Shown here: positions 18,761 to 63,852 of the stretch, piece by piece
Layout of the letters: each line of letters opens with the position of its first letter
How positions within the stretch are numbered: the first letter of the stretch is position 1
Source: an uncultured Hyphomicrobiales bacterium
GTDB taxonomy: Bacteria; Pseudomonadota; Alphaproteobacteria; Rhizobiales; Beijerinckiaceae
Assembly: GCA_903825465.1 (NCBI GenBank)
Contig: CAIKAR010000059.1
Span: forward strand, 11,971 to 75,970
Length of the DNA stretch: 64,000 bases
Direction of reading: 5' to 3'
Translations under genes and position numbers: made by a program
Notes under the pieces: generated by a model
Database searches by the model: none
Told to the model about the DNA's origin: nothing
What the model saw: the letters and a program-made list of their open reading frames with translations, nothing else

Positions 18761-18767
18761 GGCCGCG

Positions 18768-20495: not shown

Positions 20496-20521
20496 GGGAC
20501 GGGAACGTGAGGGACGCGGCG

Positions 20522-21643: not shown

Positions 21644-21652
21644 GAGCGCGCT

Positions 21653-23857: not shown

Positions 23858-23864
23858 GCGCGGC

Positions 23865-25604: not shown

Positions 25605-25694
25605 TTCCACCGCTTGCAAATCGCCGTCCGAAAACGCAATCTCCCGGCATCAATCAACGGCGCGCCGCCCGGCGCCCGGCCAGGGAGGACGCAA

Positions 25695-31551: not shown

Positions 31552-32529
31552 TCACTCGCCTTCGATCTTGTTGGCGACGATGACTTCCTTCCAGCGCAGG
31601 CTGTCTTTTTTGATATAGGCGGCGGCGTCGACGGCGCTGTTCAAAACCGGAACCGCGTGCAGATTGGCGAAGGCCTTGCGCGCGTCCGGCTGCTCGAACG
31701 CCGCGCGGATTTCGGCGGAGATTTTCTCGGCCAGCGGCAAGGGCGTCTTCGCCGGCGCGGCGACCGCGAACCAAGCCGTGGACACATAGCCCGGCAACAC
31801 CGAGCCGATGGTGGGCACGCCGGGCAATTCGAGCGACGGCGCCTCGGAGCCCACGGCGAGCGCGCGCAACGCGCCGCTCTGAAGAGACGGAAACAGGTCG
31901 AGCAGCGGCGCGAACGTCAGATCGACGCGGCCGGCCTGCAGTTCGGTAACGACTTGCGTGACGCCCGTGAAGGGCACGTGCAGCATATCGACGCCGGTCT
32001 TGTTCTTGAACGCCTCCGCCGCCAGGTGAAGCGTCGAGCCCTTGCCGGTCGAAGCGTAGGTCAGCTTTCCCGGATTGGCCTTGGCGTAGGCGATCAGCGC
32101 CGGAATATCCTTGAAATCGAGGCCTGGCCGCAGCGCCAGCACCGTCGGCACATCGGCCATCACGGTGACGGGCACGAACGCCTCGGGATCGTAGCCGAGC
32201 TTGGGAAACAGGTATTTGTTGACGGCGAGCGAGGGCGGCGGCGCGGTCAACAAGGTATAGCCATCGGGCGCCGCGCGCGAAAACAGTTCCGCGCCGATGT
32301 TGTGCGAGGCGCCGACGCGGTTCTCGATGACGAAGGGCTGGCCGAACTTTTCCTGCAGGCCCTTGGCGTAGATGCGGGCCAGCAAGTCGGCCGAACTGCC
32401 CGCCGGCACCGGCACGATGATCCTGACGCCATGGTTTGGCCAATCCGCCTGCGCCAGCGCGGGCGTCGTCAGGGCGGACATGGGCAGGGCGGCGACAAGC
32501 GCGGCGATGGCCCAGCGGGAAAAAAGCAT
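31552..32529 (-). CDS. Bug/TctC substrate-binding protein (canonical Bordetella-type)
   Basis: WPNHGVRIIVPVPAGSSAD, VIENRVGASHNIG, APDGYTL, HVPFTG. Confidence 0.9.
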   Translation of the reverse strand: MLFSRWAIAALVAALPMSALTTPALAQADWPNHGVRIIVPVPAGSSADLLARIYAKGLQEKFGQPFVIENRVGASHNIGAELFSRAAPDGYTLLTAPPPSLAVNKYLFPKLGYDPEAFVPVTVMADVPTVLALRPGLDFKDIPALIAYAKANPGKLTYASTGKGSTLHLAAEAFKNKTGVDMLHVPFTGVTQVVTELQAGRVDLTFAPLLDLFPSLQSGALRALAVGSEAPSLELPGVPTIGSVLPGYVSTAWFAVAAPAKTPLPLAEKISAEIRAAFEQPDARKAFANLHAVPVLNSAVDAAAYIKKDSLRWKEVIVANKIEGE

Positions 32530-33277: not shown

Positions 33278-34315
33278 ATGCTCAAGACCCTCGCGCTTCT
33301 CGCCGCGCTGGCGCCGCTCGGCGCGGCCACGCCGGCTGGCGCGCAATCCGCCGATCCCGCGACATGGTACAAGACACACACGACGCGCTTCATTTCGGGC
33401 GGCGGGCCGGGCGGCGGCTACGACAACTACGCGCGGCTGCTGGCGCCGCACATGGCGCTCGCGCTCGGCGGCAACGTGGTGGTGGAGAACCAGCCCGCGG
33501 CCGGTGGCATCGTCGGGCTCAACCGCATCTACGCCAACGAGCCCGACGGCCTGCAATTCATCATCCTGAACGGCGGCGCTGCGGTCATCTCGCAATTGTT
33601 CGACCTGCCAACGGTGCAATACAACCTCGCGAAGGTGAATTTTCTGGCGACGGTCAGCTCATCGCCGTGGATCGTGCTGGTCAAGCCGGATTCTCCCTAC
33701 AATTCCCTGGCCGACCTTGCGAAGGCGGGCAAAACAATCCGCTGGCCGGCGACGGGCCCCATCGACGGCTTGTCGGACGGCGCCTCGATGCTCTGCGCGG
33801 CCTATGAAATGCAGTGCCGTGTCGTGCTCGGCTACAAATCGTCGAGCGAAGGCGCGCTCGCCGTCGAGCGCGGCGAGATGGACGCGCTCTATGTGTCGGA
33901 CACCTCCGCCAACAGTTACATCAAGAACCACGAGGCGCGCGCCATCGCCGTGATCTCGCGCGAGCGCTCGCGCTTCCTCCCCGACACGCCGACGATTTTC
34001 GAACAGGGCGGCCTGAGCGAGCAGCAGGACTGGTGGTTGCAAGCGCGCGCCGACATCGACGCGCTTGGCCGCATCGTTATCGCCGGGCCGAACGTCAATC
34101 CCGAGCGCATGGCCTATTTGCAGGCGACGATGAAGAAGGTCGTCACCGACCCCGCCATCATGGCGGAAGGCGACAAGCTTGAGCGCTATCTGGACTTCCA
34201 GAGCCCCGAGGCGACAAGCAAGCGCGCGCTGGGCCTGATCAACGGCGTCACAGGCGAGCGCAAGGCGACGCTGAAGGACGTGGTGATGAGGAAATATCTG
34301 CCGGGCGCGGAGTGA
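33278..34315 (+). CDS. Bug/TctC substrate-binding protein
   Basis: Signal peptide; GGGPGGGYDNYAR; VENQPAAGG; AVERGEMD. Confidence 0.87.
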   Translation: MLKTLALLAALAPLGAATPAGAQSADPATWYKTHTTRFISGGGPGGGYDNYARLLAPHMALALGGNVVVENQPAAGGIVGLNRIYANEPDGLQFIILNGGAAVISQLFDLPTVQYNLAKVNFLATVSSSPWIVLVKPDSPYNSLADLAKAGKTIRWPATGPIDGLSDGASMLCAAYEMQCRVVLGYKSSSEGALAVERGEMDALYVSDTSANSYIKNHEARAIAVISRERSRFLPDTPTIFEQGGLSEQQDWWLQARADIDALGRIVIAGPNVNPERMAYLQATMKKVVTDPAIMAEGDKLERYLDFQSPEATSKRALGLINGVTGERKATLKDVVMRKYLPGAE

Positions 34316-49843: not shown

Positions 49844-51628
49844 ATGAGCGATATGAGCCAAGACTTTTCGGCGGAGCAGAAGCGTTTTCTCGAAGGCTTC
49901 ACCTCCGGTCTCCAAATCGCGCGCGCCGCCGGCGCGGTGGCGGTGGGTGGCGTGCCTGTTCCCTCCGCTCCCGCGGCGCCGTCGGGTCCCGACGCGGCGC
50001 ATCTCGCCGCCATGGCGAGGACGGAAGCCGACGGCAAAAAGCTGGTCGATCAGGAGAAGTGGAAGCGGTCCGAACATCCGTTCGACGCCTACGAGCGGTT
50101 TCGGCGTCAGGCGCGCTCGGGGGCGTTTCCGAAACCCGACGACAACTTCCGCTGGCGCTTCCACGGCCTGTTTTATGTCGCGCCCAATCAAGATTCCTAC
50201 ATGTGCCGGCTGCGCCTGCCCAACGGAATTCTAACCGGTTGGCAGATGAAGGGCGCCGCCGACATCGCCGAGACTCTCGGTGGCGGCTACGCTCATGTGA
50301 CGACGCGCGCCAATCTGCAAATCCGCGAAATCAAGGCGGCGGCCGCCCCCGACGTGCTCGAAGGCCTGGCGTGTCTTGGCCTCGCCACCAAGGGCTCCGG
50401 GGCCGACAACATTCGCAACGTCACGGGCTCGGCGACGGCTGGCATCGACCCCGGCGAATTGCTCGACACCCGCGCGCAGGCGCGCGACTGGCACCACCAC
50501 ATCCTCAACGACCGCTCGCTCTATGGCTTGCCGCGCAAGTTCAACGTCGCCTTCGACGGCGGCGGCGTGGTGGCGACGCTGGAAGACACCAACGACATCG
50601 GCTTTCAAGCGGTGCGCGTTAAGGAAGGCGCGGGCGTCGCGCCGGGAATATGGTGCCGCCTCGCGCTTGGCGGCATCACCGGACACCGCGACATGGCCCG
50701 CGACACGGGCGTCGTTGTCGCGCCGGACCAGACAACGGCTGTCGCCGACGCCATCACGCGGGTCTTCGTCGACAAGGGCGACAGGACGAACCGGACGAAG
50801 GCGCGTTTGAAATACGTTCTGGATTCGATGGGGTTCGAAGCCTTTCTCGCCGCGGTCGAGGAAAAGCTCGGCGGCAAATTGCCGCGCGTGGACCCGGCGT
50901 TCGTCGAGACGCGCCCAGCGGTCGACCGGCTCGCGCATAACGGCGTCCACAAGCAGAGGCAGGCGGGCCTTAACTGGATCGGCGTTTGGACGCCGCTCGG
51001 CAAAATGACCGCCGCGCAGATGCGCGCGCTCGGCGACATCGCCAACACGCTTGGCGACGGCGATATCAGGCTTACCGTGTGGCAAAACCTTTTGATCTCC
51101 GGCGTCGCCGACGCGAACGTTTCGCGCGTGAGGGAACTGATCGCCGCGGCCGGCCTCGCGGTCGAGGTGTCGAACGCGCGCGCCGGGCTTGTCGCCTGCA
51201 CCGGCAACAAGGGCTGCAAATTCGCGGCTTCCGACACAAAGAGCCACGCGCTCGAAATCGCCGACCATCTCGACGCGCGATTGACGCTCGACACGCCAGT
51301 CAACATTCACCTCACCGGCTGCCACCACTCCTGCGCGCAGCACTATATCGGCGACATCGGACTGCTCGCCGTGAAAGTGACGGTGAACGCCGACGGCGAT
51401 CAGGTCGAGGGCTATCACCTCTGCGTAGGCGGCGGTTACGCGGACAAAGGCAAGATCGGCCGGGAAATCCATCCCGACATGAAGGCCGCCGACGCGCCAA
51501 AAGTCGTGGAATCATATCTGCGCGCCTATCTGAAACACCGCGCAAGCCCCGACGAGGCCTTCTTCGGCTTCGCCAATCGCCTCGACGACGACGCCTTGCG
51601 CAAGCTCGCGGCGGAGGAAATGTCGTGA
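49844..51628 (+). CDS. nirA: Siroheme nitrite reductase, NirA family
   Basis: RWRFHGLF, HVTTRANLQIR, GSGADNIRN, LPRKFN, ACTGNKGC, GCHHSCAQH. Confidence 0.88.
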   Translation: MSDMSQDFSAEQKRFLEGFTSGLQIARAAGAVAVGGVPVPSAPAAPSGPDAAHLAAMARTEADGKKLVDQEKWKRSEHPFDAYERFRRQARSGAFPKPDDNFRWRFHGLFYVAPNQDSYMCRLRLPNGILTGWQMKGAADIAETLGGGYAHVTTRANLQIREIKAAAAPDVLEGLACLGLATKGSGADNIRNVTGSATAGIDPGELLDTRAQARDWHHHILNDRSLYGLPRKFNVAFDGGGVVATLEDTNDIGFQAVRVKEGAGVAPGIWCRLALGGITGHRDMARDTGVVVAPDQTTAVADAITRVFVDKGDRTNRTKARLKYVLDSMGFEAFLAAVEEKLGGKLPRVDPAFVETRPAVDRLAHNGVHKQRQAGLNWIGVWTPLGKMTAAQMRALGDIANTLGDGDIRLTVWQNLLISGVADANVSRVRELIAAAGLAVEVSNARAGLVACTGNKGCKFAASDTKSHALEIADHLDARLTLDTPVNIHLTGCHHSCAQHYIGDIGLLAVKVTVNADGDQVEGYHLCVGGGYADKGKIGREIHPDMKAADAPKVVESYLRAYLKHRASPDEAFFGFANRLDDDALRKLAAEEMS

Positions 51629-53226
51629 GCGCGCCCATCCTCGCGACGCCGATGTTGTTGATCCCCGAGAGCGCGCCTTTCACGGCGGAGCAGCGCGCCT
51701 GGCTTTCAGGCCTGTTCGCCGCGACCCTGACCCATGGAGTCCAGGGCGCGACCGCGTTGTCGCCGGGAGAGGCTCAGAACCTCGCGCCCTCGGCGCCGGC
51801 GCTGGCCAGCAACGACGACGCGCCCTGGCACGATCCAGCGATGGCGCTCGACGACCGCATGAAGCTCGCCGAAGCCAAGCCTCTCGCGCCGAAACTGATG
51901 GCCGCGATGGCGCAGCAGGATTGTGGCCAATGCGGCTACAATTGCGCCGACTACGCCAACGCGCTTTTCGAAAAAAAGGAGGAGCGTCTCAACCTCTGCG
52001 CGCCCGGGGGCAAGGACACCGCGCGCATGTTGAAGCTGCTCGCCCTGGAAATCGGCGCGGCTCCAAAGGCCTCGACGGAGCCCGCCGCCGCGGAGGCGGG
52101 GCCGGTAATCGCGCCCGGAAGCGGGCGTGAGAACCCCGTCGCCGCGCGCTTCGCCGGCCGTCGAAAGCTCACCGGCGAAGGTTCCGGCAAGGACGCCTGG
52201 CACATCGACTTCGACCTTTCCGACACGGGTCTCGACTATTCCGTCGGCGATTCCTTCGGCATTTTTCCGACCAACGATCCGGGGCTTTGCGACCAGATCG
52301 CGGCGATGCTCGGCGCGTCGCCGGCGATGGAGGCGCGTGGCAAGACCCTGCGCGACGCGCTGCGCGAAGACGTTTCGCTTGGCGCGGCGCCCGACACATT
52401 GTTCGAGTTGCTGTCCTACGTCACCGGCGGCAAGGCGCGGGACAAGGCCCGCGCGCTGGCGCAGGGCGGCGACCCCGACGGCGACGCCGCGACGCTCGAC
52501 GTGATGGCGGCGCTGCAGAAATTTTTCGGCGCGCGCGTGCACCCAGAGGCGTTTCTCGACGCGCTCGAACCGATGCAGCCGCGGCTCTATTCGATCTCGT
52601 CGTCGCCCAAAGCCGCGCCGGGCAAGCTGTCGCTGACAGTGGACGCGGTTCGCTATGTCGTCGGCAAGCGGAAACGCGTCGGCGTCGCCTCGACGTTCCT
52701 CGCCGACCGCGTGGAAACCGGCGGCATCGTCAAGACCTATGTTCAAAAGGCCCACAACTTCGCGCTCCCCGCCGATCCCGCGACGCCGATCGTCATGATT
52801 GGCCCCGGCACCGGCGTCGCGCCCTTTCGCGCGTTCCTGCAGGAGCGCGAGGCGACGAAGGCGCCCGGCAAAAACTGGCTCTTCTTCGGCCACCAGCGTC
52901 AAATGTCGGATTTCTTCTACCGCGACGAACTCGACAGAATGCGCGAAACCAAAGTCCTGACGCGCCTGTCGTTGGCGTGGTCGCGCGACGGCGCCACGAA
53001 ATACTACGTGCAGGACCGCATGCGCGAGGTTGGCGCGGCGCTGTGGCAATGGCTCGCCGAGGGCGCGCATATCTATATTTGCGGCGACGCCAAGCGGATG
53101 GCGAAAGACGTCGAAGCGGCGCTCGTCGACATTGTGGCTCAACATGGCGCGCGCGCGACCGAGGACGCCATCGATTTCGTCAGGGGCCTGAAGAAAAACG
53201 GCCGCTTCCAGGCCGACGTTTACTGA
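51625..53226 (+). CDS. Fe-S domain + FAD/NADPH reductase (CysJ-alpha-like, no flavodoxin domain)
   Basis: GTGA overlap; QQDCGQCGYNC..CAPGG; PRLYSISSS; MIGPGTGVAPFR; YVQDRM; YICGDA; RFQADVY. Confidence 0.88.
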   Translation: MSAPILATPMLLIPESAPFTAEQRAWLSGLFAATLTHGVQGATALSPGEAQNLAPSAPALASNDDAPWHDPAMALDDRMKLAEAKPLAPKLMAAMAQQDCGQCGYNCADYANALFEKKEERLNLCAPGGKDTARMLKLLALEIGAAPKASTEPAAAEAGPVIAPGSGRENPVAARFAGRRKLTGEGSGKDAWHIDFDLSDTGLDYSVGDSFGIFPTNDPGLCDQIAAMLGASPAMEARGKTLRDALREDVSLGAAPDTLFELLSYVTGGKARDKARALAQGGDPDGDAATLDVMAALQKFFGARVHPEAFLDALEPMQPRLYSISSSPKAAPGKLSLTVDAVRYVVGKRKRVGVASTFLADRVETGGIVKTYVQKAHNFALPADPATPIVMIGPGTGVAPFRAFLQEREATKAPGKNWLFFGHQRQMSDFFYRDELDRMRETKVLTRLSLAWSRDGATKYYVQDRMREVGAALWQWLAEGAHIYICGDAKRMAKDVEAALVDIVAQHGARATEDAIDFVRGLKKNGRFQADVY

Positions 53227-53270: not shown

Positions 53271-54314
53271 TCAAATCGGCCGCGTCGCCACCCAGTTCAC
53301 GCCGTCGATGGTGGCATGCGCCGTCAAAACGGCGCAAGCGCCGGCCGGCGCGTCGCCGAGATCGCCGCCGGCGACGGCCTCAAGCGGATAGGAGCCGCGG
53401 CATTCCTCAAGCAGCCAGCGATCCAGCCGCGCGCCCGGCACGCGCGCGATCGCGGCCGCGGCTTGCGGGCCGATATCGGCGGCCGGATCGTTGCGCGCGA
53501 TGAGCGCGTCGAGCGCCGCCTCCAGCGTGGCGAAGCGCGCGGCGATGGCGGCGTTCGTCGAGAGCGAGCGCGTCCGCCGGACCCATGTCGACTTGTAGGC
53601 GATGGACGCGCGGATGGCGAAGGACGCGCCCGTTTCGCCGGCGCGGTCGACGCGCGCGAAGCCGACGCCGCGCCCGAGGTCCGGCGCGATGGTGATGTTG
53701 ACGTCCTCCGCCCGCGCGTCGCGCGCCGATTTTTCGATGGCGCCGGCGAGCGTGTTGGCGCCGCGTTCCGGCGACGAGTCGATCAGCGCCAGCGCGTCGC
53801 GCGCGATCACCGCTGCGTGCGCGAACAATCCGCGCTCGGCGTCGTCGCGCTTCGCGCGTTCGGCGGCGAACAGCGCGGTCGCGTCGACCAGCGCGAGGCC
53901 GGGCGCCGTTTCCAGCAATTCCGCGGCCTGAACGCTCGGCAGCATGTCGAGGTCCAGCACGCCGAGCCTCCGCGCGCCGCTGGCTTTCAGGCGCTTGGCG
54001 AAATATTCGGCGGGCTTCGGCGTCGTCGTCAATTCGCCGACGGGCGTCACCGCGCGCATCCATTCGGCGACGCGCTTCGACAGCGCCGTCGCGAAATCCA
54101 GCTCCCCCGCGGGCGGCGCGAAGAGCAGGCCTTCGGACCAGTAGGGCGTGAAGCCGATGAGCCACGACACCGCCGCGGGCCGCGCGATGTTGGTGTAGAT
54201 CACGAGGCCGTCGAGGTTTTCGCGCGCCATCGCCGATTGCAGGCGCGCGCGCCGCGCGGCGAGCGCGGCTTTCGGCAGTTCGGCTTCGTCCCAGCCATAA
54301 TATCCGCGGCGCAT
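53271..54314 (-). CDS. Degenerate M24-fold protein, copy 2
   Basis: MRRGYYGWDEAELP..RARLQSAM..LVIY; GFTPYWSE; YKSTWVRRTR; no metal ligands. Confidence 0.7.
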   Translation of the reverse strand: MRRGYYGWDEAELPKAALAARRARLQSAMARENLDGLVIYTNIARPAAVSWLIGFTPYWSEGLLFAPPAGELDFATALSKRVAEWMRAVTPVGELTTTPKPAEYFAKRLKASGARRLGVLDLDMLPSVQAAELLETAPGLALVDATALFAAERAKRDDAERGLFAHAAVIARDALALIDSSPERGANTLAGAIEKSARDARAEDVNITIAPDLGRGVGFARVDRAGETGASFAIRASIAYKSTWVRRTRSLSTNAAIAARFATLEAALDALIARNDPAADIGPQAAAAIARVPGARLDRWLLEECRGSYPLEAVAGGDLGDAPAGACAVLTAHATIDGVNWVATRPI

Positions 54315-54323
54315 GGCGAGCCC

Positions 54324-55430
54324 TCAGTAAGCGACTTGAAACAATTCGCGGGACAGCGAGCCAAGCGACTCGTGGCCATTCTCGCGCACGACGATGGTGT
54401 CGCCAAGCACCATGTAGCCGGCGTCGGGATGGTAGGTGTTGGGGTGCACGATGATCGTCGAGTCGCCGACGACCGGCAGCGCGACATCCTCGAGGATTTG
54501 CGGGCGCTGGTCGGGGAACAACCCGATGCCGTGGCCGCGCACGCGCGTGTATTCCGACGTGACGTAGTCGCCGAGGCCATATTTGCGAAACACGTCGTTC
54601 TCGGCCTTGGCGATGTCGCTCGCCTTCACGCCCGACTTCACCACCGCGAGGCCGGCGTCGAGCGCCTCCTGGTAAACCGCGAAGGACTTGAGCTGGACGT
54701 CGCTCGCCTTGCCCGCGACAAGCGTGCGGCACACCTGCGCGTAATATCCATCGACGCAGGGCGTGAGCTCGGTTGTCACGAGGTCGCCCGCTTTGACGAT
54801 CTTGCCGACCGGCGGCGCCATGCCGCGCACCTCGACGCCGCCGACGCCGATGATCATGAAGTTTTCCGGCACCTTATGGACCCGGAAAAACGCCTCGATG
54901 GCGGCGATCAACTCGTAGTCCTTGGCGCCGGGAACAGCCGCGTCGCGGAAAACCTTGTAGCCCTCGTCGGCGAGCTTGGCGGCGCGGCGCGCGGCGTCGA
55001 GTTCGAAGTCGCGCTTGGCCATCAACAAATGTTCGATCAAGGCGGCGCCGTCGGATATGCGCAAATCCTTCGCCTCGCGCGTGAGGCCGTAGGGCATCAG
55101 CCGCCACGGCGCGGCGGCGACGCGGCGGTTGCCGGCGCGGCCGAGCATGCTTTTGGCGGCCTCGATCAACTTTGGAGCGAAGACCACGTCGCACGCGGTT
55201 TCAAGCTTCGCGCGCTCGGCTTCGCCGGCGTCGTCGAGCAACAGCGTCGTCGTTCCGTCGCGCCCAACGAGCGCCAACGCCTGCCCCTCTTGAATCCCGA
55301 AATCCGTCGCGTAGCGCAGCGAATCCGCGTGCCAGTTGTTGCCGTAGACAAGCAGCGCGTCGATGTCGGCGCGGGCCATCTCCTCGCGCAGGATCGCGCT
55401 TCGAGCGTTGTGCAGGGCCGAGGCGTTCAT
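54324..55430 (-). CDS. M24 family protein with non-canonical ligands, copy 2
   Basis: KRDFELDAARRAA, GDLVTTELTPC, AQVCRT, RVRGHGIG, VHPNTY. Confidence 0.85.
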   Translation of the reverse strand: MNASALHNARSAILREEMARADIDALLVYGNNWHADSLRYATDFGIQEGQALALVGRDGTTTLLLDDAGEAERAKLETACDVVFAPKLIEAAKSMLGRAGNRRVAAAPWRLMPYGLTREAKDLRISDGAALIEHLLMAKRDFELDAARRAAKLADEGYKVFRDAAVPGAKDYELIAAIEAFFRVHKVPENFMIIGVGGVEVRGMAPPVGKIVKAGDLVTTELTPCVDGYYAQVCRTLVAGKASDVQLKSFAVYQEALDAGLAVVKSGVKASDIAKAENDVFRKYGLGDYVTSEYTRVRGHGIGLFPDQRPQILEDVALPVVGDSTIIVHPNTYHPDAGYMVLGDTIVVRENGHESLGSLSRELFQVAY

Positions 55431-55438
55431 TTCAACTC

Positions 55439-57112
55439 CTATTCGGCGGCGGACACGCGGACGAATCCCTCGCGCAGGTCGTTCTCGACGGCGGCTTTCG
55501 AGCGCGCCCCGGGGTCGCCGTAGCCGCCGCCGCCCGCCGTGAAGAAAGCCACGGAATCGCCGGCTTGCAAGGGGATTTGCGTGCCCTTCAGCACGCGCGT
55601 TTCCGGCGCGCCGCTCGCGTGGCGGATGATCGCGTAATTGGCGCCGCCCGAGCCGCCGCCATGCAGGCCCCATGGCGGCAGTTTCGTGCGCTCGAAATTG
55701 ATGTTCACTTGGCAGGGCACGAGGCATTTGTAGGTGAGTTCGACGCCGAGCCCGCCGCGGAATTTGCCCACCCCGCCGCTGCCGTCCCGCAGGCGATGGT
55801 TTTCCACCAGGAATGGATAGCGTATTTCCTGCAATTCCACCGGCGAATTGCGCACGTCGCCCTGGCACACCGAGACGCTGGCGTCCTCGCCGTCTTCGTG
55901 CGGGCGGCCTCCCCATCCCCCGCCGAAGATGTTCATCAGCAGGAAGCGCTGGTTGTCCCCGGTGACGCCGTAGAACGAGCAGCCGCCCATGTCGCCCTTG
56001 TGCGCGGCGGGAATCGCCTCCGGCAGCGCCGGCGCCAGCGCCTTCAAAATCGTGTCGATGGTGGTGGGCAGCGCGATGCTCCACAGGCCGAGCGCGGCGG
56101 GCGGACGCGCGCTGACAAGCGTGCCCTCGGGGAGGATCACCTCAAGCGAGCGGAAGCAGCCCTCGTTCACGTCGAGGTCGGGCGAGGTCAGCGCCTTGAA
56201 GGCGACGCGCGCCGCCGCCACGCCGCCCGAGCGGCCCGAATTGACGGGGCTGTTCGTCTGGGGGTTCATCTCGGAGAAGTCGATCGACATGGTCGAGCCC
56301 TTGACGCGCACGGTGACCTTTATGCGCAGCGTCTTTTCCAGGTCGCGGCCGTCGTTGTCGAGGAAGCTCTCGGCCGTGTAGACGCCATCCGGAATCTTCT
56401 CGACGACCTTGCGCACCGCGAGGTCCGCCTGGTCCCACACGCGGGCGACGCATGCTTCCACGGTCGCGCGGCCGTAGCGCTGGAGCAGTTCCACATAGCG
56501 CCGCGCGCCCAGCTGGCACGAGGCGATTTGCGCGCGCATGTCGCCGAGCGCCGCGTCGGGAAACCGCGTGTTGTCGGTGATGATCTGCCACAGCGTGTCG
56601 TTGCGCTTGCCGGCCTCGTAGATTTTCAGCGAGCGCATCTGAACGCCCTCCGCGAAAATCTCCGTGGTCGCCGACGAGCCGAAGCCGATGCGCGCGCCGC
56701 CGATGTCGACCCAGTGCGCGCGGTTGGCGGTGAAGGCGACGATCTCGCCCTCGAAGAAGACGGGGCAGTAGAGCACGACGTTGTTGAGATGCTGTCCGCA
56801 GGTCTCGCCGTGGTTCATGATCAACACGTCGCCCGGCGCGAAGCCGTCGAGGCCCCAGCGGCGCACGCCGTCCTCGATGGCGATGCCGAGGTCGGCGAGG
56901 AAGATCGGCAAGCCGCCGCGGTTCTGCGAAATCATGCGGCCTTGGAGGTCGATGAGGCCGCAGCAATAGTCGCGCACCTCGTAGATCATCATGTTGTAGG
57001 CCGCCTTGCAGAGCGCGTTGCCCATCTCGTCGGCGTAGGCGACGATGGCGTTGCGCACGACCTCGACGGTGATTGGATGAGCCTCGGCGGCGCTTGATGT
57101 CTCGGGGGTCAT
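55439..57112 (-). CDS. Hydantoinase B/oxoprolinase family subunit, copy 2
   Basis: HPITVEVV, YNMMIYEVRDY, HWVDIGG, DGSGGVGKFRGG, TAGGGGYGDP. Confidence 0.92.
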   Translation of the reverse strand: MTPETSSAAEAHPITVEVVRNAIVAYADEMGNALCKAAYNMMIYEVRDYCCGLIDLQGRMISQNRGGLPIFLADLGIAIEDGVRRWGLDGFAPGDVLIMNHGETCGQHLNNVVLYCPVFFEGEIVAFTANRAHWVDIGGARIGFGSSATTEIFAEGVQMRSLKIYEAGKRNDTLWQIITDNTRFPDAALGDMRAQIASCQLGARRYVELLQRYGRATVEACVARVWDQADLAVRKVVEKIPDGVYTAESFLDNDGRDLEKTLRIKVTVRVKGSTMSIDFSEMNPQTNSPVNSGRSGGVAAARVAFKALTSPDLDVNEGCFRSLEVILPEGTLVSARPPAALGLWSIALPTTIDTILKALAPALPEAIPAAHKGDMGGCSFYGVTGDNQRFLLMNIFGGGWGGRPHEDGEDASVSVCQGDVRNSPVELQEIRYPFLVENHRLRDGSGGVGKFRGGLGVELTYKCLVPCQVNINFERTKLPPWGLHGGGSGGANYAIIRHASGAPETRVLKGTQIPLQAGDSVAFFTAGGGGYGDPGARSKAAVENDLREGFVRVSAAE

Positions 57113-57124
57113 GGCGGCTCTCCC

Positions 57125-59176
57125 TTAAAACGCGACGTCGATGACGAGGTGGCCGGCGTCCGTCACGCGCGCCTTGTCGCCGGGGTGGATCAGTATCGTC
57201 GAATTCGGCTCCTCGACGACGGCGGGGCCGTCGAAAACGAAGCCCGCGGGCAAGGACGGGCGCCACAGAATGCGCGCGTCGACGGGCTTTTCCGGATCGC
57301 CAAACACCACCTTGCGCGATGTCTCGGGCGCGTCGCTCGTCGGCGTCCACGGGCGGGACATGGATTCCTCCGCCACGGTGTCGGCGCGCGGCGCCGTCAG
57401 CACGAGGCGGATATTGACGATTTCGAGCGCCTCTTCCGCGGCCGCTTGGCCATAGCGCTGGTCGTGCTCGACATGGAAGAGCTCGCGGATTTTCGACACG
57501 TCGCCGGTCAGCATGTCGGGCCCGTCGACGGGAATGTGCAGCGCGTGTTCCTGGCCGACGTAGCGGAGGTCGGCGTTGAATTGCGTTTTCGCGATCCCGC
57601 GCGCGACGCCGTCGAGCTTCAACTGCTCGTCGCCGGCGGCGGCGAGCTCCTTGAATATGGTCGCGACCCCGGAGGGATCGAGCTGGCCGAGCCGCCCCAC
57701 GATCGTGCGCACGAAATCCTGCCGCCACGAGGCCATCAACATGCCGAGCGCCGAAAACGCGCCGGGCAGCTTGGGAATGATGACGCGCGGAATGAATATC
57801 TCGCGCGCGACGGCGACCGCGTGCATCGGGCCCGCGCCGCCGAAGGCGATCATCGTCGTTTCCCGCGGGTCCACGCCCTTGTTCACCGAGACCGCGCGCA
57901 CCGACAGCGACATGTTGGCGTCGGCGATGGTGGCGACGCCGATGGCCGCTTCCTCCACCGACAGCTTCAGCGGATCGGCGACTTTCGCCTTGATCGCCCC
58001 GCGCGCCGCCTCCACGTCGAGCGGCATGCCGCCGTTGAGGAACCGCTTGGGATTGATGCGGCCGAGCACGAGGTCGGCGTCGGTGATGACGGGCGTGTCC
58101 GAGCCCCTGCCGTAGCACGCGGGGCCGGGATCGGCGCCGGCGCTTTGCGGCCCGACATGCAATCCGCCGGTGTCGTCCACCCAGGCGATGGAACCGCCGC
58201 CGGTGCCGACTTCGACGATATCGACGACGGGCAGCTGCATGGGCTGGCCGCTCGCCAGCGGGCCAATCACATAGCCTTCTTCGACCGCGGGCGCGCCGTG
58301 AAGGATGAGGCTCGATTTCGCCGTCGTGCCGCCCATGTCGAAGCCGATGGCCTGTTCGATGCCAAGCTGCTTGCACAGGATGCCCGCCGCGATCATGCCG
58401 GCGACGGGGCCGGATTCCATCATGGACACCGGCTGCGAGCGCGCCATCGACGCGGACATGACGCCGCCGTTCGAGCGCATGAGGCGCATCTTGCCGGAAA
58501 ACCTCTCGCCGCGAAGCCACGTTTCGAGGTTGCCAAGATAGTCGCGCACGCGCGGCCCGACATAGGCGTTGAGCACGGTCGTCGACGTGCGCTCGTACTC
58601 GCGGAACTCGCGCAGGATTTCGTGCGACAGCGTGACGAAGAGGCCGGGGCTCGCCTCGCGAAGGGCCTCGCCGATGGCGCGTTCGTGCGCGGGGTTGGCG
58701 TAGGAATGCAGAAGACACACGGCGACGGAGGCCGCGTTCGCGTCGAGGACCGCCTTCACGACGGCGTCGATCCCGCCGCGCGACAACTCCTTCAGCGCGC
58801 GGCCCGCGGGATCGAGCCGCTCGTCGACCTCGAACGTCAGGTGGCGCGCCACGAGCGGCTTCGGCCTGTGAAAGAACAGGTTGAACGCTTCGATGCGGTT
58901 GCCCCGGCCAATGGCGTAGACATCGCGAAAACCCTTGGTCGTGATCAGCGCCGTCTTCGCGCCCTTGCGCTCGAGGACGGTGTTGATCGCGATGGTCGAG
59001 CCATGCAGCAACTCGCCAAGGCCCGGCAGGTCGCATTTCGCGAGCCGCAGGCTTTCGGCGACGCCTTCGCTCGGATCGGCCGGCGTCGTGGACGTCTTCG
59101 ACGAGACGATTTCGCCGTCGAGAACGCCGACGAGGTCGGTGAACGTGCCGCCAATATCAACGCCAACCATGTTCAT
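57125..59176 (-). CDS. Hydantoinase/oxoprolinase A subunit, copy 2
   Basis: DIGGTFTD, HGSTIAIN, GFDMGGTTAK, GTGGGS, SAGADPGPACYG; ATGA overlap with the upstream permease. Confidence 0.92.
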   Translation of the reverse strand: MNMVGVDIGGTFTDLVGVLDGEIVSSKTSTTPADPSEGVAESLRLAKCDLPGLGELLHGSTIAINTVLERKGAKTALITTKGFRDVYAIGRGNRIEAFNLFFHRPKPLVARHLTFEVDERLDPAGRALKELSRGGIDAVVKAVLDANAASVAVCLLHSYANPAHERAIGEALREASPGLFVTLSHEILREFREYERTSTTVLNAYVGPRVRDYLGNLETWLRGERFSGKMRLMRSNGGVMSASMARSQPVSMMESGPVAGMIAAGILCKQLGIEQAIGFDMGGTTAKSSLILHGAPAVEEGYVIGPLASGQPMQLPVVDIVEVGTGGGSIAWVDDTGGLHVGPQSAGADPGPACYGRGSDTPVITDADLVLGRINPKRFLNGGMPLDVEAARGAIKAKVADPLKLSVEEAAIGVATIADANMSLSVRAVSVNKGVDPRETTMIAFGGAGPMHAVAVAREIFIPRVIIPKLPGAFSALGMLMASWRQDFVRTIVGRLGQLDPSGVATIFKELAAAGDEQLKLDGVARGIAKTQFNADLRYVGQEHALHIPVDGPDMLTGDVSKIRELFHVEHDQRYGQAAAEEALEIVNIRLVLTAPRADTVAEESMSRPWTPTSDAPETSRKVVFGDPEKPVDARILWRPSLPAGFVFDGPAVVEEPNSTILIHPGDKARVTDAGHLVIDVAF

Positions 59177-60006
59177 TTCGATTTGGCTCCGGAAAGACCA
59201 AGTTTGGCCGGCGCGCGCGCGCCCGGCGTCAGGCGACGCTCGGCGACCCGCACCAGCGAGTTGAACAAAACCGCGATCAGCGCGAGCGTGCCGATCAGCG
59301 CGAACAGCGGCGCGGGATTGAAGTTTTCCGCGTAAAGCCGCGTGAAATAGCCGATGCCGCCGGTCGACACGTAAAGCTCGGCGAGAATCACGCCAAGCAT
59401 GGTCAACGTCATCGACAGGCGCAGGCCGGTGAAAAAAGCGGGCGCCATGTTGGGAGCGATCACGTGGCGCAGCAGGTCGGCGCGCGCGCCGCCCATCGAG
59501 GCGATGGCGCTGCGATGGAGCGGGTTGATGTCGCGCATCCCCGCGACCACGTTGACGATGATGGGAAAGATTCCATGCGTGAACCCAAACGCGATCTTGC
59601 CCGCCGCGCCCAGCCCGAAGATCAGGATGAACAGCGGCATCAGCGTGACTTGCGGAATGGCGTAAAGCAGCAACACGATGGGCAGGAAGCTGGCGCGGGC
59701 GAAGTTGGACACGCCGATTGAAATTCCGATCGCCGCGCCGAAAACGATGGACAACGCGTAGGCGACGGCGATTTCGAACACCGCCATGGAAAGCGCCCAA
59801 AAAATGCGCTCGTCGCTCATAACCGGGTTGAACCACGCGCCGACGATCGCCGAGACCGGCCGAATGAAGGCGGGGTCGGCGAAAAACCTGCCGTAGATTT
59901 CGAGCGCCGCCGCCGCCGCGAGGATGATCGCCCAGCGCGTCAACGACACCGCGCGCGCCCGCGGCATGCCCATGATGATTTCGCGCGGCGCGTCGATCAT
60001 GCTCAT
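59173..60006 (-). CDS. ABC permease, TauC/SsuC-like
   Basis: LYAIPQVTLMP, FPIIVNVVAG, FFTGLRL, LAELYVSTGGIG. Confidence 0.88.
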   Translation of the reverse strand: MSMIDAPREIIMGMPRARAVSLTRWAIILAAAAALEIYGRFFADPAFIRPVSAIVGAWFNPVMSDERIFWALSMAVFEIAVAYALSIVFGAAIGISIGVSNFARASFLPIVLLLYAIPQVTLMPLFILIFGLGAAGKIAFGFTHGIFPIIVNVVAGMRDINPLHRSAIASMGGARADLLRHVIAPNMAPAFFTGLRLSMTLTMLGVILAELYVSTGGIGYFTRLYAENFNPAPLFALIGTLALIAVLFNSLVRVAERRLTPGARAPAKLGLSGAKSK

Positions 60007-60767
60007 CGCCGCGCGGCCTCGCTGGCCGTCGCCCGGTTCTCGATGGAGGTCATGACGAAATTGAGCGAGACCGCGAAGCAAATGACGACGACGATCCAGG
60101 CGTACATGCGCGCCGAATCCATCAGTTCCGCGGCGAGCGCGATATTGCGCCCGACGCCGGCGATCGACGACAGCGCCTCGCCGCCGAGCACCGACGCGAA
60201 ACAGATGAAGAATCCGACGCGCAGCCCCGTCACAAGCACCGGAAACGCGGAAGGCAACAACACGTGCCGAAATGTTTCCAGCGACGACGCGCCCATCGAG
60301 CGCGCGGCGCGCAGGTAGCGCTCGTCCGCGCGGCCAAGCCCGGCGATGGTGTTGAGCGCGATGGGAAAGAAGCCGTAGACCGCCCCGTAAGCGACCTTGG
60401 AGCCGGCGCCGATGCCGAAGAAAAGGATGAACATCGGGAAGAACAGCGTGATGGGAATGGTGAAAAGGCCGGCGATGATCGGCTCGAACACCTCGGTCCA
60501 GAATTTCGAGCGCGTCACCAGCCAGCCGGCGAAGACGCCGGCGACGACCGCGATGCCATAAGCCTTGGCGATGGTGGCCAGCGTCACCCCGACGGCCGAC
60601 CAGAACGGCGCCGCGACGACAAGCCGCGACACGGCGGTGTAAACCGCTTCGGGCGGCGGCAAAAACAGCGGGCTGACGGCGTGGCTCGATGTGAGCAGCC
60701 ACCACGCGCCGCCGACGACGCCCAAGAACGCGATTTGAATCGAGCGTTGGGCGAAGGCGCCGGTCAC
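60003..60767 (-). CDS. ABC permease, TauC/SsuC-like
   Basis: FFPIALNTIAG, EAA-like LRAARSMGAS, VTGLRVG, GGEAL. Confidence 0.88.
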   Translation of the reverse strand: MTGAFAQRSIQIAFLGVVGGAWWLLTSSHAVSPLFLPPPEAVYTAVSRLVVAAPFWSAVGVTLATIAKAYGIAVVAGVFAGWLVTRSKFWTEVFEPIIAGLFTIPITLFFPMFILFFGIGAGSKVAYGAVYGFFPIALNTIAGLGRADERYLRAARSMGASSLETFRHVLLPSAFPVLVTGLRVGFFICFASVLGGEALSSIAGVGRNIALAAELMDSARMYAWIVVVICFAVSLNFVMTSIENRATASEAARR

Positions 60768-61630
60768 GCGCCGCCTCCGTCCGCGTCGCGTTGCAGCGCC
60801 ATCGCCCGCCGGATTTCATCGCGCAGCAGGGCGAACAGCTCGTTGCGCATTTCGCCGAAGCGCGGCTCGAGCATGAAGTCGGGCGCGCGCGGATGCCTCT
60901 CGTTGACGTTGACGATGGTTTTCACCCGGCCGGGCCGCGCCGTCATGACAACGATTCTGTCCGAGAGGAAAACGGCTTCGGCCAGCGAGTGCGTCACGAA
61001 GACAATGGTCTTGCCCGTCTTCGCCAGCAGCGTCGAAAGGTCCTCGCCGAGCACCATGCGGCTTTGCTCGTCGAGCGCCGCGAAAGGCTCGTCCATCAAG
61101 AGGATGTTGGTGCGCACGCAGATGCCGCGCGCCATGTTGACGCGCTGGCGCATGCCGACCGAAAGCTGCGTTGGATAATGCCGCGCGAATCCGCCCATGC
61201 CGACGGCCTTCAGCGCGTCCATCGCCAGGTCGTCCCGCTCGGATTTCGGCACGCCCTGGAATTTCAGCGCGATGCGGAAATTCTCGATGATCGTGTACCA
61301 GGGAAACAGCGTGCTTTCCTGAAACACAAACGCGATCTCGTCCGGACGCGGCGCGCCGTCGACGCGCTTGCCGGCGACCGTCACCTCCCCGCTGGTCGGC
61401 TTGAACAGGCCGCCGATGATGTTCAGCAGCGTGCTCTTGCCGCAGCCCGACGGCCCCAGCAGGCAGACGAATTCACCTGGCGCGATGTCGAGCGAAATGT
61501 CGTCGAGCGCCAGGACGCCCTGCGCCGCGCCGACCGCGCCAAAGCGCTGCGTCACGCCGCGAATAGATATGGCCGGCGCGAGCCCCGCCGCCGTCGCGCC
61601 GGCGCCAATGGCCGTGGCGGCCTCGCTCAA
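60764..61630 (-). CDS. ABC ATP-binding protein, TauB/SsuB-like
   Basis: GPSGCGKST, LSVGMRQR, LLMDEPF, VFVTH. Confidence 0.93.
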   Translation of the reverse strand: MSEAATAIGAGATAAGLAPAISIRGVTQRFGAVGAAQGVLALDDISLDIAPGEFVCLLGPSGCGKSTLLNIIGGLFKPTSGEVTVAGKRVDGAPRPDEIAFVFQESTLFPWYTIIENFRIALKFQGVPKSERDDLAMDALKAVGMGGFARHYPTQLSVGMRQRVNMARGICVRTNILLMDEPFAALDEQSRMVLGEDLSTLLAKTGKTIVFVTHSLAEAVFLSDRIVVMTARPGRVKTIVNVNERHPRAPDFMLEPRFGEMRNELFALLRDEIRRAMALQRDADGGGA

Positions 61631-62607
61631 AGCCTCACCGGCGTGAAATCCGGATCGTACATCGCCGCCGCCGCCGGCTCGGCGTCGGTGATGCCGAGCT
61701 CCTTCAACGAGGCGCGGATCGTGTCAACCGCCTTTGGCGAGAAGGCCCCGTCGAAGGAGATCATGCTCATCTCGGTGTCGTAGGATTCGTCGACGATCTT
61801 TTCGCTGTAGTTCGTCGCCTTGGCGAGGACGCGCACGGCGTCGGCCCTGTGGTCGCGGATGTAGGCGACGGTGGTGAACCAGCCGTGGAGGAAACGCCTC
61901 AGCAATTCGGGGTTCTTTTGTATCAACGCGTCGGTGGCGAAAATCACATGCGTGATGAAGTCCGGCGTGATCTGGCCGAAGTTCATCAGGATGTCGCCGC
62001 CTCCTTGCGCCTTGTAGTCGTAGCCTTCCTCGATCGCGGTGACGCTGCCTTGCAACTCGCCGGCCTTCATCGCGATGGCGCGGGTGCGCACCTCGCCCAT
62101 CGGCACGGTTTGAATGCCGTCGGGGCCCCAGCCCTCCCTGGTTGAAATCGCGCGCACCAGCCAGTCCGTCAGCGAGCCGGCGGTGCTGACGCCGATTTTC
62201 TTGCCGCGCAGGTCGGCGATGGATTTCACCGGCCCGTCCTTCGGCACAACGAGGCACATGTTGCGGGGTGGATTGGCCATCACCGCGACAGCGTGGGCCG
62301 GCACGCCCTTGGACGCGTAGCCCATGCCGGGGCCCGAGCCGAAGCCAATGTCGATGGCCCCGGCGGTCAGGGCTTGTTGGATCTGCCCGTCGCCGCGAAA
62401 CGTGGAGATCGTCACATCGATGTTTTCGGCGGTGAAAACTCCGGCCTGCTGGCCGACATCGACGCCCGCCATTGGGAAGGAGTTGACGATCGTCTTGCCA
62501 ACGCGCAGCGAATCCGCCGCGCGCGCGACGGTCGGCGCGAGAGCCATCGCCGCGGCGCCCGTGGCGATGGCGCGCCGTCTCGATATTGGCCGGAATAGGA
62601 CGGGCAT
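61627..62607 (-). CDS. ABC substrate-binding protein, NMT1/SsuA-like
   Basis: SRRR Tat-like signal; DLRGKKIGVSTAGSLTD. Confidence 0.87.
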   Translation of the reverse strand: MPVLFRPISRRRAIATGAAAMALAPTVARAADSLRVGKTIVNSFPMAGVDVGQQAGVFTAENIDVTISTFRGDGQIQQALTAGAIDIGFGSGPGMGYASKGVPAHAVAVMANPPRNMCLVVPKDGPVKSIADLRGKKIGVSTAGSLTDWLVRAISTREGWGPDGIQTVPMGEVRTRAIAMKAGELQGSVTAIEEGYDYKAQGGGDILMNFGQITPDFITHVIFATDALIQKNPELLRRFLHGWFTTVAYIRDHRADAVRVLAKATNYSEKIVDESYDTEMSMISFDGAFSPKAVDTIRASLKELGITDAEPAAAAMYDPDFTPVRL

Positions 62608-62766
62608 CGCTGAATCCCCCAGCGCCGGAGTGGCGCTCCCGGTCGCGCGCCCTTTTACGGATTTGGCGCTGTCGCGCAAGGGGTGGTTGCCTTGGCGGCG
62701 GAAAGCGCCTTACCATCGCCCAAACGCCGGCGCCCTCGAGGCGGCCGATTTGGGAGGGACGCGCCG

Positions 62767-63852
62767 ATGCCGATGGGTTGGGGTCTCCGCCGCGCGCGGA
62801 CTTTTCCCTCCGTTCACGGCAAGCGGGTGGCCGGGCGGGGAAAAGGCGCGCGCGCCGCGATTTGCGCCCTTTCCCTCCTTTCCGCCATCCCCGCCCGCGC
62901 GCAATCCGTCGCCGACTTCTACAAGACCCACAATCTCACGATTGTGGTCGGCATTGTGGCCGGCAGCACCTATGACCTCAGCGCCCGCCTGATCGCGCGC
63001 GGCATGACGCGCCATCTGCCGGGCAATCCCGCGGTTGTCGTGCAAAATATGCACGGCGCCAATTCCATCATCTCGGCGAACTACGTCTACAACGCCGCGC
63101 CAAAGGACGGATCCGTGATCTGGACGGGATCGCGCCTCGCCGCGTTCGAGCCGCTGTTCGGCAATTCCAACGCCAAATACGACGCGCTCAAGGCGCGCTG
63201 GCTTGGCAGCACCGCGAGCGAAAACGGCGTCGTCGCCGTCTGGCACGCCGCGCCGCATCTCACCGCGCAAGACCTGTTCGACAAGGAACTGATCGTCGGC
63301 GCGACCGATCCCGGCGGCGACACCTATATGTACCCGACCGCCCTCAATCGGCTGCTTGGCGCGAAGTTCAAGCTCATCGGCGGCTACGCCGGACCGGAGC
63401 CGATCGCGCTCGCCATGGAGCGTGGCGAGGTGCAGGGCAACGGCAGTTGGTCCTGGTCGAACATTCCCTTCGCCCATCCGCAATGGCTGGCGGAAAAGAA
63501 AATCCGCGTGTTGATGCAACTTGGCGTCGACAAGCATCCCGATTTGCAGGACGTGCCGCTGGCGACGGAGTTCGCGAAGACCGACGAACAGCGGCAGGTG
63601 TTGTCGATCCTCATGGGCATGAAGAAATTCTCGTTCCCGTTTTTCGCGCCGCCGGGCGTGCCCGAAGACCGCGCGGCGGCTTTGCAAAAAGCGTTCGAGG
63701 AAACATTGCGGGACGAGGAGTTCCTGGCCGATTCGAAAACGCAGGGACGCGGCGTCGGCATGGCCGGCGGCGCGGAGACAACGGCCGCCTACAGAGCCGC
63801 GTACGCGCTGCCGGAGAACGTGATTGAACGGGCGCGGGAGGTGGCGCGGTGA
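62767..63852 (+). CDS. Bug/TctC substrate-binding protein
   Basis: AQSVADFYK, NMHGANSI, AMERGEVQG, FFAPPGVP. Start uncertain. Confidence 0.87.
   Translation: MPMGWGLRRARTFPSVHGKRVAGRGKGARAAICALSLLSAIPARAQSVADFYKTHNLTIVVGIVAGSTYDLSARLIARGMTRHLPGNPAVVVQNMHGANSIISANYVYNAAPKDGSVIWTGSRLAAFEPLFGNSNAKYDALKARWLGSTASENGVVAVWHAAPHLTAQDLFDKELIVGATDPGGDTYMYPTALNRLLGAKFKLIGGYAGPEPIALAMERGEVQGNGSWSWSNIPFAHPQWLAEKKIRVLMQLGVDKHPDLQDVPLATEFAKTDEQRQVLSILMGMKKFSFPFFAPPGVPEDRAAALQKAFEETLRDEEFLADSKTQGRGVGMAGGAETTAAYRAAYALPENVIERAREVAR

Follow-up and report, generated by a model that had tools for sequence, protein, structure and literature searches.

A second HyuAB-M24B module in an uncultured Beijerinckiaceae bacterium, predicted to be an import-and-degrade operon for a small nitrogen compound

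What is the second copy of a putatively catabolic four-gene module for, and how is it related to the first, when both lie on the same contig of one bacterial genome? The stretch of DNA analysed here (the window, 64,000 nucleotides from an uncultured Hyphomicrobiales bacterium of the Beijerinckiaceae) contains both copies; in each, genes for two hydantoinase-like subunits (A and B, of the HyuA and HyuB families) are followed by a gene for an M24-type protein (C) and a gene for its degenerate paralogue (D). An earlier note had described the second copy as an inverted paralogue paired with a different transporter class, and had read the two as members of a family diversified towards different substrates. 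Our analysis suggests that copy 2 is a self-contained import-and-degrade operon for a small nitrogen compound, acting in three steps on a substrate that probably differs from that of copy 1, and we assign this reading a probability of about 0.55.

Gene layout of copy 2 and its paralogues

Pfam and NCBIfam searches, together with direct reading of the sequence, revealed that copy 2 comprises eight genes on the minus strand (53271..62607), in the following order:

61627..62607, minus strand: substrate-binding protein (SBP) with an NMT1/SsuA-like fold, periplasmic (Pfam NMT1, 82 bits)
60764..61630, minus strand: ATP-binding cassette (ABC) transporter ATPase (Pfam ABC_tran, 117 bits)
60003..60767, minus strand: ABC permease A (Pfam BPD_transp_1, 79 bits)
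59173..60006, minus strand: ABC permease B (read from the sequence; Pfam BPD_transp_1, 69 bits; orthologue in related operons)
57125..59176, minus strand: A2 (HyuA), ATP-binding subunit, HyuA/CapA-like amidohydrolase of the hydantoinase/oxoprolinase type, 683 amino acids (Hydant_A_N, Hydantoinase_A and Hydant_A_C)
55439..57112, minus strand: B2 (HyuB), Hydantoinase_B subunit, 557 amino acids (Pfam Hydantoinase_B, 536 bits)
54324..55430, minus strand: C2, two-domain M24B-type protein, 368 amino acids (Pfam Creatinase_N and Peptidase_M24)
53271..54314, minus strand: D2, degenerate M24B paralogue, 347 amino acids (Pfam Creatinase_N alone)

Permease B occupies what had appeared to be a 0.8-kb gap ahead of A2. 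The SBP and ATPase genes overlap by 4 nt (TTGA, the ATPase start lying on the SBP stop), as do the genes for the ATPase and permease A (GTGA), and 4-nt ATGA overlaps join permease A to permease B and permease B to A2. Short spacers separate A2 from B2 (12 nt), B2 from C2 (8 nt) and C2 from D2 (9 nt), each with Shine-Dalgarno-like purine runs. The translationally coupled importer that the earlier note had called a complete SsuABC/TauABC-like system with ATGA/GTGA coupling was present, but it consists of four transporter genes, not three. Judged by this layout, the eight genes are one tightly coupled unit that looks co-transcribed. No regulator gene adjoins copy 2. Its putative boundaries are:

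62608..62830, no strand assigned: divergent intergenic region 5' of the SBP gene, presumed promoter (map of open reading frames)
53199..53215, minus strand: terminator-like hairpin with a T-run, 56 nt past the D2 stop, in the convergent gap with a cysJ-like gene (consensus scan)

The hairpin is weak evidence of an operon end, because such sites were no commoner than in shuffled sequence (12 observed, 9.0 ± 4.2 expected). In the region ahead of the SBP gene, the Rfam search gave no match at E ≤ 0.1, hence no riboswitch or known RNA element, and the sigma-70 consensus scan gave no match either.

Copy 1 has the same four module genes on the opposite strand:

16739..22732, plus strand: copy 1 of the module (Pfam; start codons)
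16739..18760, plus strand: A1
18768..20495, plus strand: B1
20522..21643, plus strand: C1
21653..22732, plus strand: D1

The two copies lie on one 91-kb contig, 30.5 kb apart, and the Pfam assignments bore out the statement that the order A, B, M24, pseudo-M24 recurs on the minus strand about 30 kb away. Pairwise protein identity was 47% for A, 48% for B, 30% for C and 26% for D, while the DNA could be aligned only in parts of A and B, at 67-69%. Near-identical DNA, which had been named as the sign of an artefact, was looked for and not seen, the longest exact word in common being 25 nt, and the view of the copies as clearly diverged and not recently duplicated agrees with these values. An assembly artefact and a recent duplication are excluded because protein identity is 26-48%, DNA identity reaches at most 69% over parts of the genes, and both copies share a contig. 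Base composition is also uniform, at about 66% G+C throughout the window (range 0.62-0.69).

The genome, a 3.9-Mb draft of 142 contigs, contains about 10 HyuA/HyuB pairs, four of which come with C and D: the two copies in the window and a further two located on other contigs. From this divergence, copy 2 is an old paralogue, one of four anciently diverged modules in the genome. The four define the clades used below: clade 2 (copy 2 and its orthologues), clade 1, clade 34 and clade 93. About 10 HyuA/HyuB pairs in 3.9 Mb is in itself an unusually large expansion of ATP-dependent amidohydrolase/carboxylase paralogues; the Stellaceae-like genomes searched gave 5-13 matches to B2 each at E ≤ 1e-50.

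The predicted importer and the two enzyme pairs

The SBP gene most likely starts at the ATG at 62607, which is preceded by a purine-rich stretch and followed by an RRR signal. The protein carries a twin-arginine signal, its sequence beginning MPVLFRPISRRRAIATGAA, and with the two transmembrane-domain genes and the single nucleotide-binding-domain gene it makes up the gene set of a type I ABC importer. Copy 2 resembles the SsuABC/TauABC systems (NitT/TauT-family importers) in its NMT1/SsuA-like SBP, TauC/SsuC-like permeases and TauB-like ATPase. All its scores, however, fall under the equivalog or subfamily cutoffs: the SBP scored 107.2 bits with the NCBIfam model SsuA_fam (cutoff 163.5) and 30 with taurine_ABC_bnd (cutoff 304), sharing with SsuA and TauA the general NMT1 fold alone, and a permease scored 110 bits with the NCBIfam TauC model (cutoff 342). 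The solved structure nearest to the SBP is 3QSL, an exported protein of unassigned function. Copy 2 further differs from these systems in having two permease genes, in the order SBP-ATPase-permease-permease, and in being translationally coupled to catabolic genes, not to sulfonate monooxygenase genes.

Subunit A2 showed all three domains above the gathering scores (PF05378, 166 bits; PF01968, 316; PF19278, 35; cutoffs 25, 23 and 21). The ATP site of CapA, of the ASKHA type, is marked by the motifs DxGGTxTD, DxGGT and GxxPGP (PMC8453981). A2 keeps all three, as DIGGTFTD at residue 7 and GADPGP at residue 347 (script search) and FDMGGT near residue 280 (A1/A2 alignment), and in a position-restricted script search each was present in 62 of the 63 module-linked A proteins. 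The B2 sequence matched PF02538 over its full length (536 bits, profile positions 2-519 of 519) and aligned end to end with CapB (6YRA_B) and with the B half of N-methylhydantoinase. The metal tetrad of CapB consists of Asp41, His99, Asp102 and His124 (PMC8453981); B2 has Asp48, His108, Asn111 and His133 at these positions, that is, three of the four CapB ligands. The Asn at the third position (GQHLNN instead of G.H..D) occurred in 64/64 module-linked B proteins and also in the two nearest HyuB paralogues of the genome outside the modules (on contigs C19 and C65), and therefore marks a subfamily wider than the module.

The solved proteins that match best are N-methylhydantoinase (7HK5/9H03) and CapAB of Pseudomonas jessenii (6YRA), with 435 and 334 bits for A2 (against 7HK5 and 6YRA_A, respectively) and 264 and 232 bits for B2. 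Copy 2 shares with both the two-subunit architecture, the subunit lengths, the ATP motifs in A and the B fold with an Asp/His metal site, whereas Asn replaces Asp as the third metal ligand and an M24B pair, found in neither known system, always follows. Scores with the NCBIfam caprolactamase equivalogs NF050156 and NF050157 were 487.6 bits for A2 and 255.4 bits for B2, below the cutoff of 1000. In hyuA-hyuB-hyuC hydantoin utilisation, an ATP-dependent hydantoinase is followed by an N-carbamoyl-amino-acid amidohydrolase of the peptidase M20 type. Copy 2 would resemble that route in that ATP is spent on opening the ring and a second hydrolase then takes the linear product; unlike it, the second enzyme is a predicted M24B heteromer, and no carbamoylase or racemase gene is present.

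C2 combines the pita-bread domain (Peptidase_M24, PF00557, 88.5 bits) with Creatinase_N (30.2 bits). Alignment with the Pyrococcus furiosus prolidase 1PV9 placed its metal ligands as follows:

1PV9 D209: C2 E221
1PV9 D220: C2 Q232
1PV9 H284: C2 H300
1PV9 E313: C2 H329
1PV9 E327: C2 G343, with D344 next to it

The five C2 residues were invariant in 86/86 C proteins of all four clades, and position 344 was Asp in 78 and Glu in 8. From the M24 set Asp, Asp, His, Glu, Glu, C2 thus keeps the His alone and D2 none. D2 aligns as a homologue of C from the N-terminal domain to midway through the catalytic domain (hhalign probability 99.6% over 263 columns). By sequence only Creatinase_N was recognised in D2, while the full two-domain M24B fold emerged from an AlphaFold2 model (predicted local distance difference test, pLDDT, 91; predicted template-modelling score, pTM, 0.88) and a Foldseek search with the full-length model, which returned prolidases, creatinases, EutD and DddP at template-modelling (TM) scores of 0.63-0.72 and identities of 11-20%. 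Overall similarity to creatinase was evident for C2 against 1CHM (E = 8e-14) and for D2 (TM 0.69-0.72).

In D2, Arg235 and Arg246 stand at the first two metal-ligand positions, and a Ser within CRGS takes the place where C has RGH. Both arginines were found in 69/69 clade-2 D proteins, and 26 residues were invariant in a 20-sequence clade-2 alignment. In the eight D proteins of the other clades, the two positions were Tyr/Phe/Ala and Glu/Asp/Ala, mostly Tyr and Glu. Six of these eight had the motif GH/GNxxGL where clade 2 has CRGSYPL, the other two having Gly or Arg for its His/Asn. From the alignment and from their position on a beta-hairpin in the model, Arg235 and Arg246 probably line the cleft, and two invariant arginines there suggest an anionic group on the ligand. 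The label "pseudo-M24" was right as regards the fold and the loss of ligands, as model, Foldseek and alignment all indicated, yet D is not featureless.

M24B enzymes are dimeric and act on small amide or amidine substrates. From the adjacency and co-evolution of C2 and D2, and this dimeric nature, we infer that the two form a heterodimer. They share the Creatinase_N and pita-bread fold with prolidase (1PV9), creatinase (1CHM/1KP0) and EutD/DoeA (6TWK). Unlike these enzymes, C2 keeps only the His of D/D/H/E/E, with E, Q, H and G(D) at the other positions, D2 has two arginines and no ligand, and two different chains are encoded side by side instead of one homodimer-forming gene.

Inheritance of the module and its transporters

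Trees were built for each of the four genes, rooted with outgroups for A, B and C and at the midpoint for D; clades 1, 93 and 34 were sampled with 3-4 loci each. All four share one backbone, in which clade 2 stands opposite the other three clades, clades 1 and 34 being sisters and clade 93 branching outside them. Co-evolution was further assessed in 48 colinear A-B-C-D modules with fast maximum-likelihood (ML) trees and Shimodaira-Hasegawa-like approximate likelihood-ratio (SH-aLRT) supports. Robinson-Foulds distances between these trees were 18-28 of 90, and the correlation of patristic distances was r = 0.97-0.98 for all modules and 0.80-0.89 inside clade 2 (Mantel p ≤ 0.001). Of the 25-28 splits with SH-aLRT ≥ 95, 22-28 were common to both trees of any pair and none was incompatible. 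The rate of D was roughly double that of the other three genes. These results support co-evolution of A, B, C and D as one unit at the loci where they are colinear; of the congruence that the earlier note had taken as the mark of such a unit, the common backbone and the lack of strongly supported conflict were found, while strict identity of the trees was rejected (see below).

The operon itself recurs in relatives. Orthologues of D2 (44-72% identical) were present in 10 of 24 genus-mate genomes; five of these genus-mates keep the full SBP-ATPase-permease-permease-A-B-C-D order, a sixth lacking only the SBP match, and in three of them cysIJ also adjoins the operon. When 185,579 species genomes were scanned by pattern with the C-family alignment, at least 562 relatives were recovered, the best 80 of which were all C2 orthologues (54-86% identity). 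Carriers among these best 80 were Beijerinckiaceae-like metagenome-assembled genomes (MAGs) from lakes, Terripilifer, Methylocella, Neorhizobium, Chelativorans, Mesorhizobium, Aquibium, Xanthobacteraceae, Stellaceae, Micropepsaceae, Paracoccaceae and two Bordetella-labelled MAGs. The distribution is patchy, since no true homologue outside the bacterium's own genome turned up among 150 genomes sampled evenly across the order. A clade-2 D profile matched 246 cluster representatives at E ≤ 1e-30 among 1.84 billion. C and D were adjacent in all but about 10 of 94 non-redundant loci, and in most of these exceptions the D match fell under the 80% length filter or at a contig end. Candidate "hybrid modules" (clade-2 C-D with nearby clade-1 or clade-34 A-B) were dropped as a firm conclusion, as those A-B genes belong to other transcription units 1-8 kb away.

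Importers were surveyed at 47 colinear A-B-C-D loci outside the genus, in other Alphaproteobacteria. An orthologous importer lay upstream in 19 and a different NMT1-type importer downstream in 11 (Neorhizobium, Chelativorans and others), and six contigs were too short upstream. In the annotation of Neorhizobium galegae, the genes run LysR, HyuA, HyuB, M24, "aminopeptidase P N-terminal domain protein", hypothetical protein, SBP, ATPase, permease, permease, amidohydrolase; plasmid-collection matches were restricted to the chromids of this species, and all annotation names were generic. Taken together, synteny indicates block-wise inheritance of this operon among related Alphaproteobacteria.

The contrast in transporter class does exist inside the window, but by comparison it proved to be a property of copy 1 in this genome. 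The genes that follow copy 1 are:

22775..27458, plus strand: SBP_bac_8 binding protein, fused two-domain permease and FAD_binding_2 flavoprotein (Pfam)

The Fbp-like system and flavoprotein reported there were thus recovered. No ATPase gene was found near these transport genes, and the system may rely on an ATPase encoded elsewhere or be incomplete. In two sister genomes, however, the orthologues of copy 1 are followed by an NMT1/SsuA-type SBP, an ATPase and two permeases, which are 36-40% (SBP) and 56-58% (ATPase) identical to those of copy 2. In the bacterium's own genome, the clade-34 module has an NMT1-type importer inserted between B and C and the clade-93 module has one downstream. NMT1-type import is therefore the usual partner of the family, and by this comparison the Fbp-like partner of copy 1 is the exception, a lineage-specific replacement. 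The use of transporter class as an argument for different substrates is accordingly weak, given that both the sister orthologues and the third and fourth copies carry NMT1/SsuA-type importers.

In the trees of both ATPase and SBP, the importers that lie upstream in clade-2 loci form a single clade (support 96-98), and a long stem (support 99-100) unites them with the clade-1 and clade-34 importers; neither tree gave good support to sister relationships inside that group. The clade-93 importer fell outside this group, as did the downstream importers of the Neorhizobium/Chelativorans type, and in the ATPase tree these share one loosely supported branch.

Beyond the operon end, a cysI-like gene for a sulfite/nitrite reductase haemoprotein and a cysJ-like flavoprotein gene converge on copy 2 (49844..53226, plus strand), and this neighbourhood is retained beside copy-2 orthologues in several genus-mates (loci L021, L023, L024 and L041-L044). 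Its position beside an SsuA-like importer is suggestive, yet the genes are encoded on the other strand, and synteny is probably all that ties them to the operon. Upstream of the operon and divergent from it is a TctC-like binding-protein gene (TctC/Bug family, 62683..63852, plus strand). Genes of this family are scattered near all modules, here and in relatives; the window holds two more (31552..32529, minus strand; 33278..34315, plus strand), and at two clade-93 loci of sister genomes they were the sole transport-related genes nearby within the query set used.

Proposed function and competing explanations

In the mechanism proposed for copy 2, an SBP exported by the twin-arginine pathway and its ABC importer (one ATPase, two permeases) would take up a small polar nitrogen compound containing a stable cyclic amide of the lactam, hydantoin or ureide type. 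Next, A2/B2 would spend ATP to open the ring, like caprolactamase and N-methylhydantoinase; on the model of caprolactamase, the lactim would be activated with ATP by A2 and hydrolysed at the metal site of B2. Finally, the C2-D2 heterodimer, with its prolidase/creatinase fold, would hydrolyse the resulting linear amide, ureido or amidino acid, C2 contributing the invariant catalytic set and D2 a clade-specific pocket and hence specificity. Copy 1 probably acts on another substrate. Divergence towards different substrates remains plausible through the clade-specific residues of the D cleft, which are better evidence for it than transporter class, the argument on which it had partly been built.

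Several observations weigh against this proposal. The Asp-to-Asn change in B2 and the replaced ligands in C2 mean that the chemistry may differ from that of the models used, and the order of the two enzymatic steps is a presumed one. The D proteins compared from outside clade 2 are a small sample of eight sequences. Among the 47 colinear loci surveyed for importers, 11 had no adjacent NMT1-type ABC ATPase. Approximately unbiased (AU) tests rejected each alignment on the ML trees of the other genes (p < 0.02), which may be put down to weakly resolved parts of the trees. Clade-2 C-D genes also occurred without colinear A-B in about 14 of 80 loci, and five of six such genomes had no clade-2 B, their best B being at most 48% identical to B2, the level of other clades. 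C-D therefore need not act on the product of A-B, and the four-gene unit is divisible, not indivisible.

This last point bears on the alternative that survives best, in which the order is reversed: C2-D2 would act first, for example by taking off an amidino, acyl or aminoacyl group or, like ectoine hydrolase, by opening a cyclic amidine, and A2/B2 would then open the released lactam. The M24B family includes the ring-opening EutD and the amidino-hydrolysing creatinase, both among the fold matches of D2, C-D pairs that stand alone in some genomes would be able to act on a primary substrate, and gene order does not fix reaction order. On the other hand, in the characterised relatives caprolactamase, N-methylhydantoinase and HyuAB, catabolism begins with the ATP-dependent enzyme (PMC8453981 and established knowledge), and A-B preceded C-D in 48/48 colinear modules, so that we regard the reversed order as unlikely, though worth keeping in view.

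A rather less probable explanation is that copies 1 and 2 are isofunctional, handling the same substrate with different regulation or affinity, their divergence reflecting neutral drift since either an old duplication or separate acquisitions. The identical catalytic positions of C across clades, the same D-H-N-H site in B of all clades and the use of copy 2's transporter family by copy-1 orthologues fit this explanation. Against it stand the maintenance of four deeply diverged clades together in one 3.9-Mb genome, the D-cleft residues that are invariant in clade 2 and different elsewhere, and the low identity between the SBPs of different clades (36-40%).

It is still harder to reconcile with the data that A2/B2 is an ATP-dependent carboxylase-like enzyme of the acetone/acetophenone carboxylase branch, with C-D processing or stabilising its product or serving as structural subunits. 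The family does include carboxylases with additional subunits, and the metal site of B2, with Asn111, fits neither model exactly. The hydantoinase and caprolactamase scores given above, however, exceed those against carboxylases for both A2 (292 and 230 bits) and B2 (118 and 45 bits), B2 is short and CapB-like at 557 amino acids, no gamma-subunit gene is present, and C-D occurs without A-B. That copy 2 arose by metagenome assembly or binning, through a chimeric contig or a collapsed or duplicated repeat, is scarcely credible: the genome is a draft and its relatives are mostly metagenome bins, but the copies share one contig of uniform G+C with DNA identity no higher than 69% over partial stretches, and the eight-gene operon with the same cysIJ flanks was seen again in independent assemblies.

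A more specific and clearly more tentative version of the proposal can be drawn for all four modules. C-D would be an obligate heterodimeric M24B enzyme of an undescribed kind, with D as its specificity subunit, and the four operons would be four uncharacterised routes for N-heterocyclic or cyclic-amide compounds. The C site would be rebuilt, possibly as a mononuclear 2-His-1-carboxylate site, or metal-free; D would not be a dead pseudoenzyme, its pocket being Arg-Arg in the lineage of copy 2 and Tyr-Glu in the remaining lineages; and an Asn-variant ATP-dependent lactamase would be coupled to this enzyme, the compounds being natural ones of humic freshwater and soil.

In 14 loci, genes for CoxL-like large subunits of Mo hydroxylases lie 2-8 kb downstream of a copy-2-type module (L045, L046, L048, L051, L052, L056, L059, L072, L076, L091, L093, L096, L098 and L099), often accompanied by cupin, GFO/IDH/MocA and Amidohydro_2 genes; these may hint at an N-heteroaromatic (acid) substrate in those lineages. 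A cytoplasmic NMT1/phosphonate-binding-like protein of about 330-345 amino acids, lacking a signal peptide, is encoded beside the clade-93 module (contig C93, 42850..43818, minus strand), the clade-34 module (contig C34, 13191..14138, plus strand) and some clade-2 modules (L076, L091, L093, L096, L098, L099 and L060), and is absent from both window copies; we take it to be reminiscent of 4,5-dihydroxyphthalate decarboxylase (PhtD-like). Naming a substrate from such neighbours (Mo hydroxylases, Amidohydro_2, PhtD-like, cupin, GFO, LysR) was rejected, as they vary between lineages and are absent beside copy 2 in the window.

Searches of the literature on hydantoinase/HyuAB with M24 or creatinase and on caprolactamase found no description of HyuAB combined with an M24B enzyme and a degenerate partner, and no paper or curated model was found for the replaced ligand set of C or the Asn variant of B. 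Every component belongs to a known superfamily; the combination, the C ligand set and the B Asn variant appear to be new.

ATP-dependent lactamases are of interest for the mild hydrolysis of stable lactams, according to the abstract of PMC11033972. If the model is true, the operon marks a so far unassigned route for the uptake and breakdown of a stable nitrogen ring compound in Alphaproteobacteria, in carriers whose sources include lakes, groundwater and root nodules and which comprise culturable strains of Neorhizobium, Chelativorans, Mesorhizobium, Methylocella and Terripilifer. The four co-evolving paralogues would then be a natural series for asking how an enzyme/pseudoenzyme pair splits catalysis from specificity.

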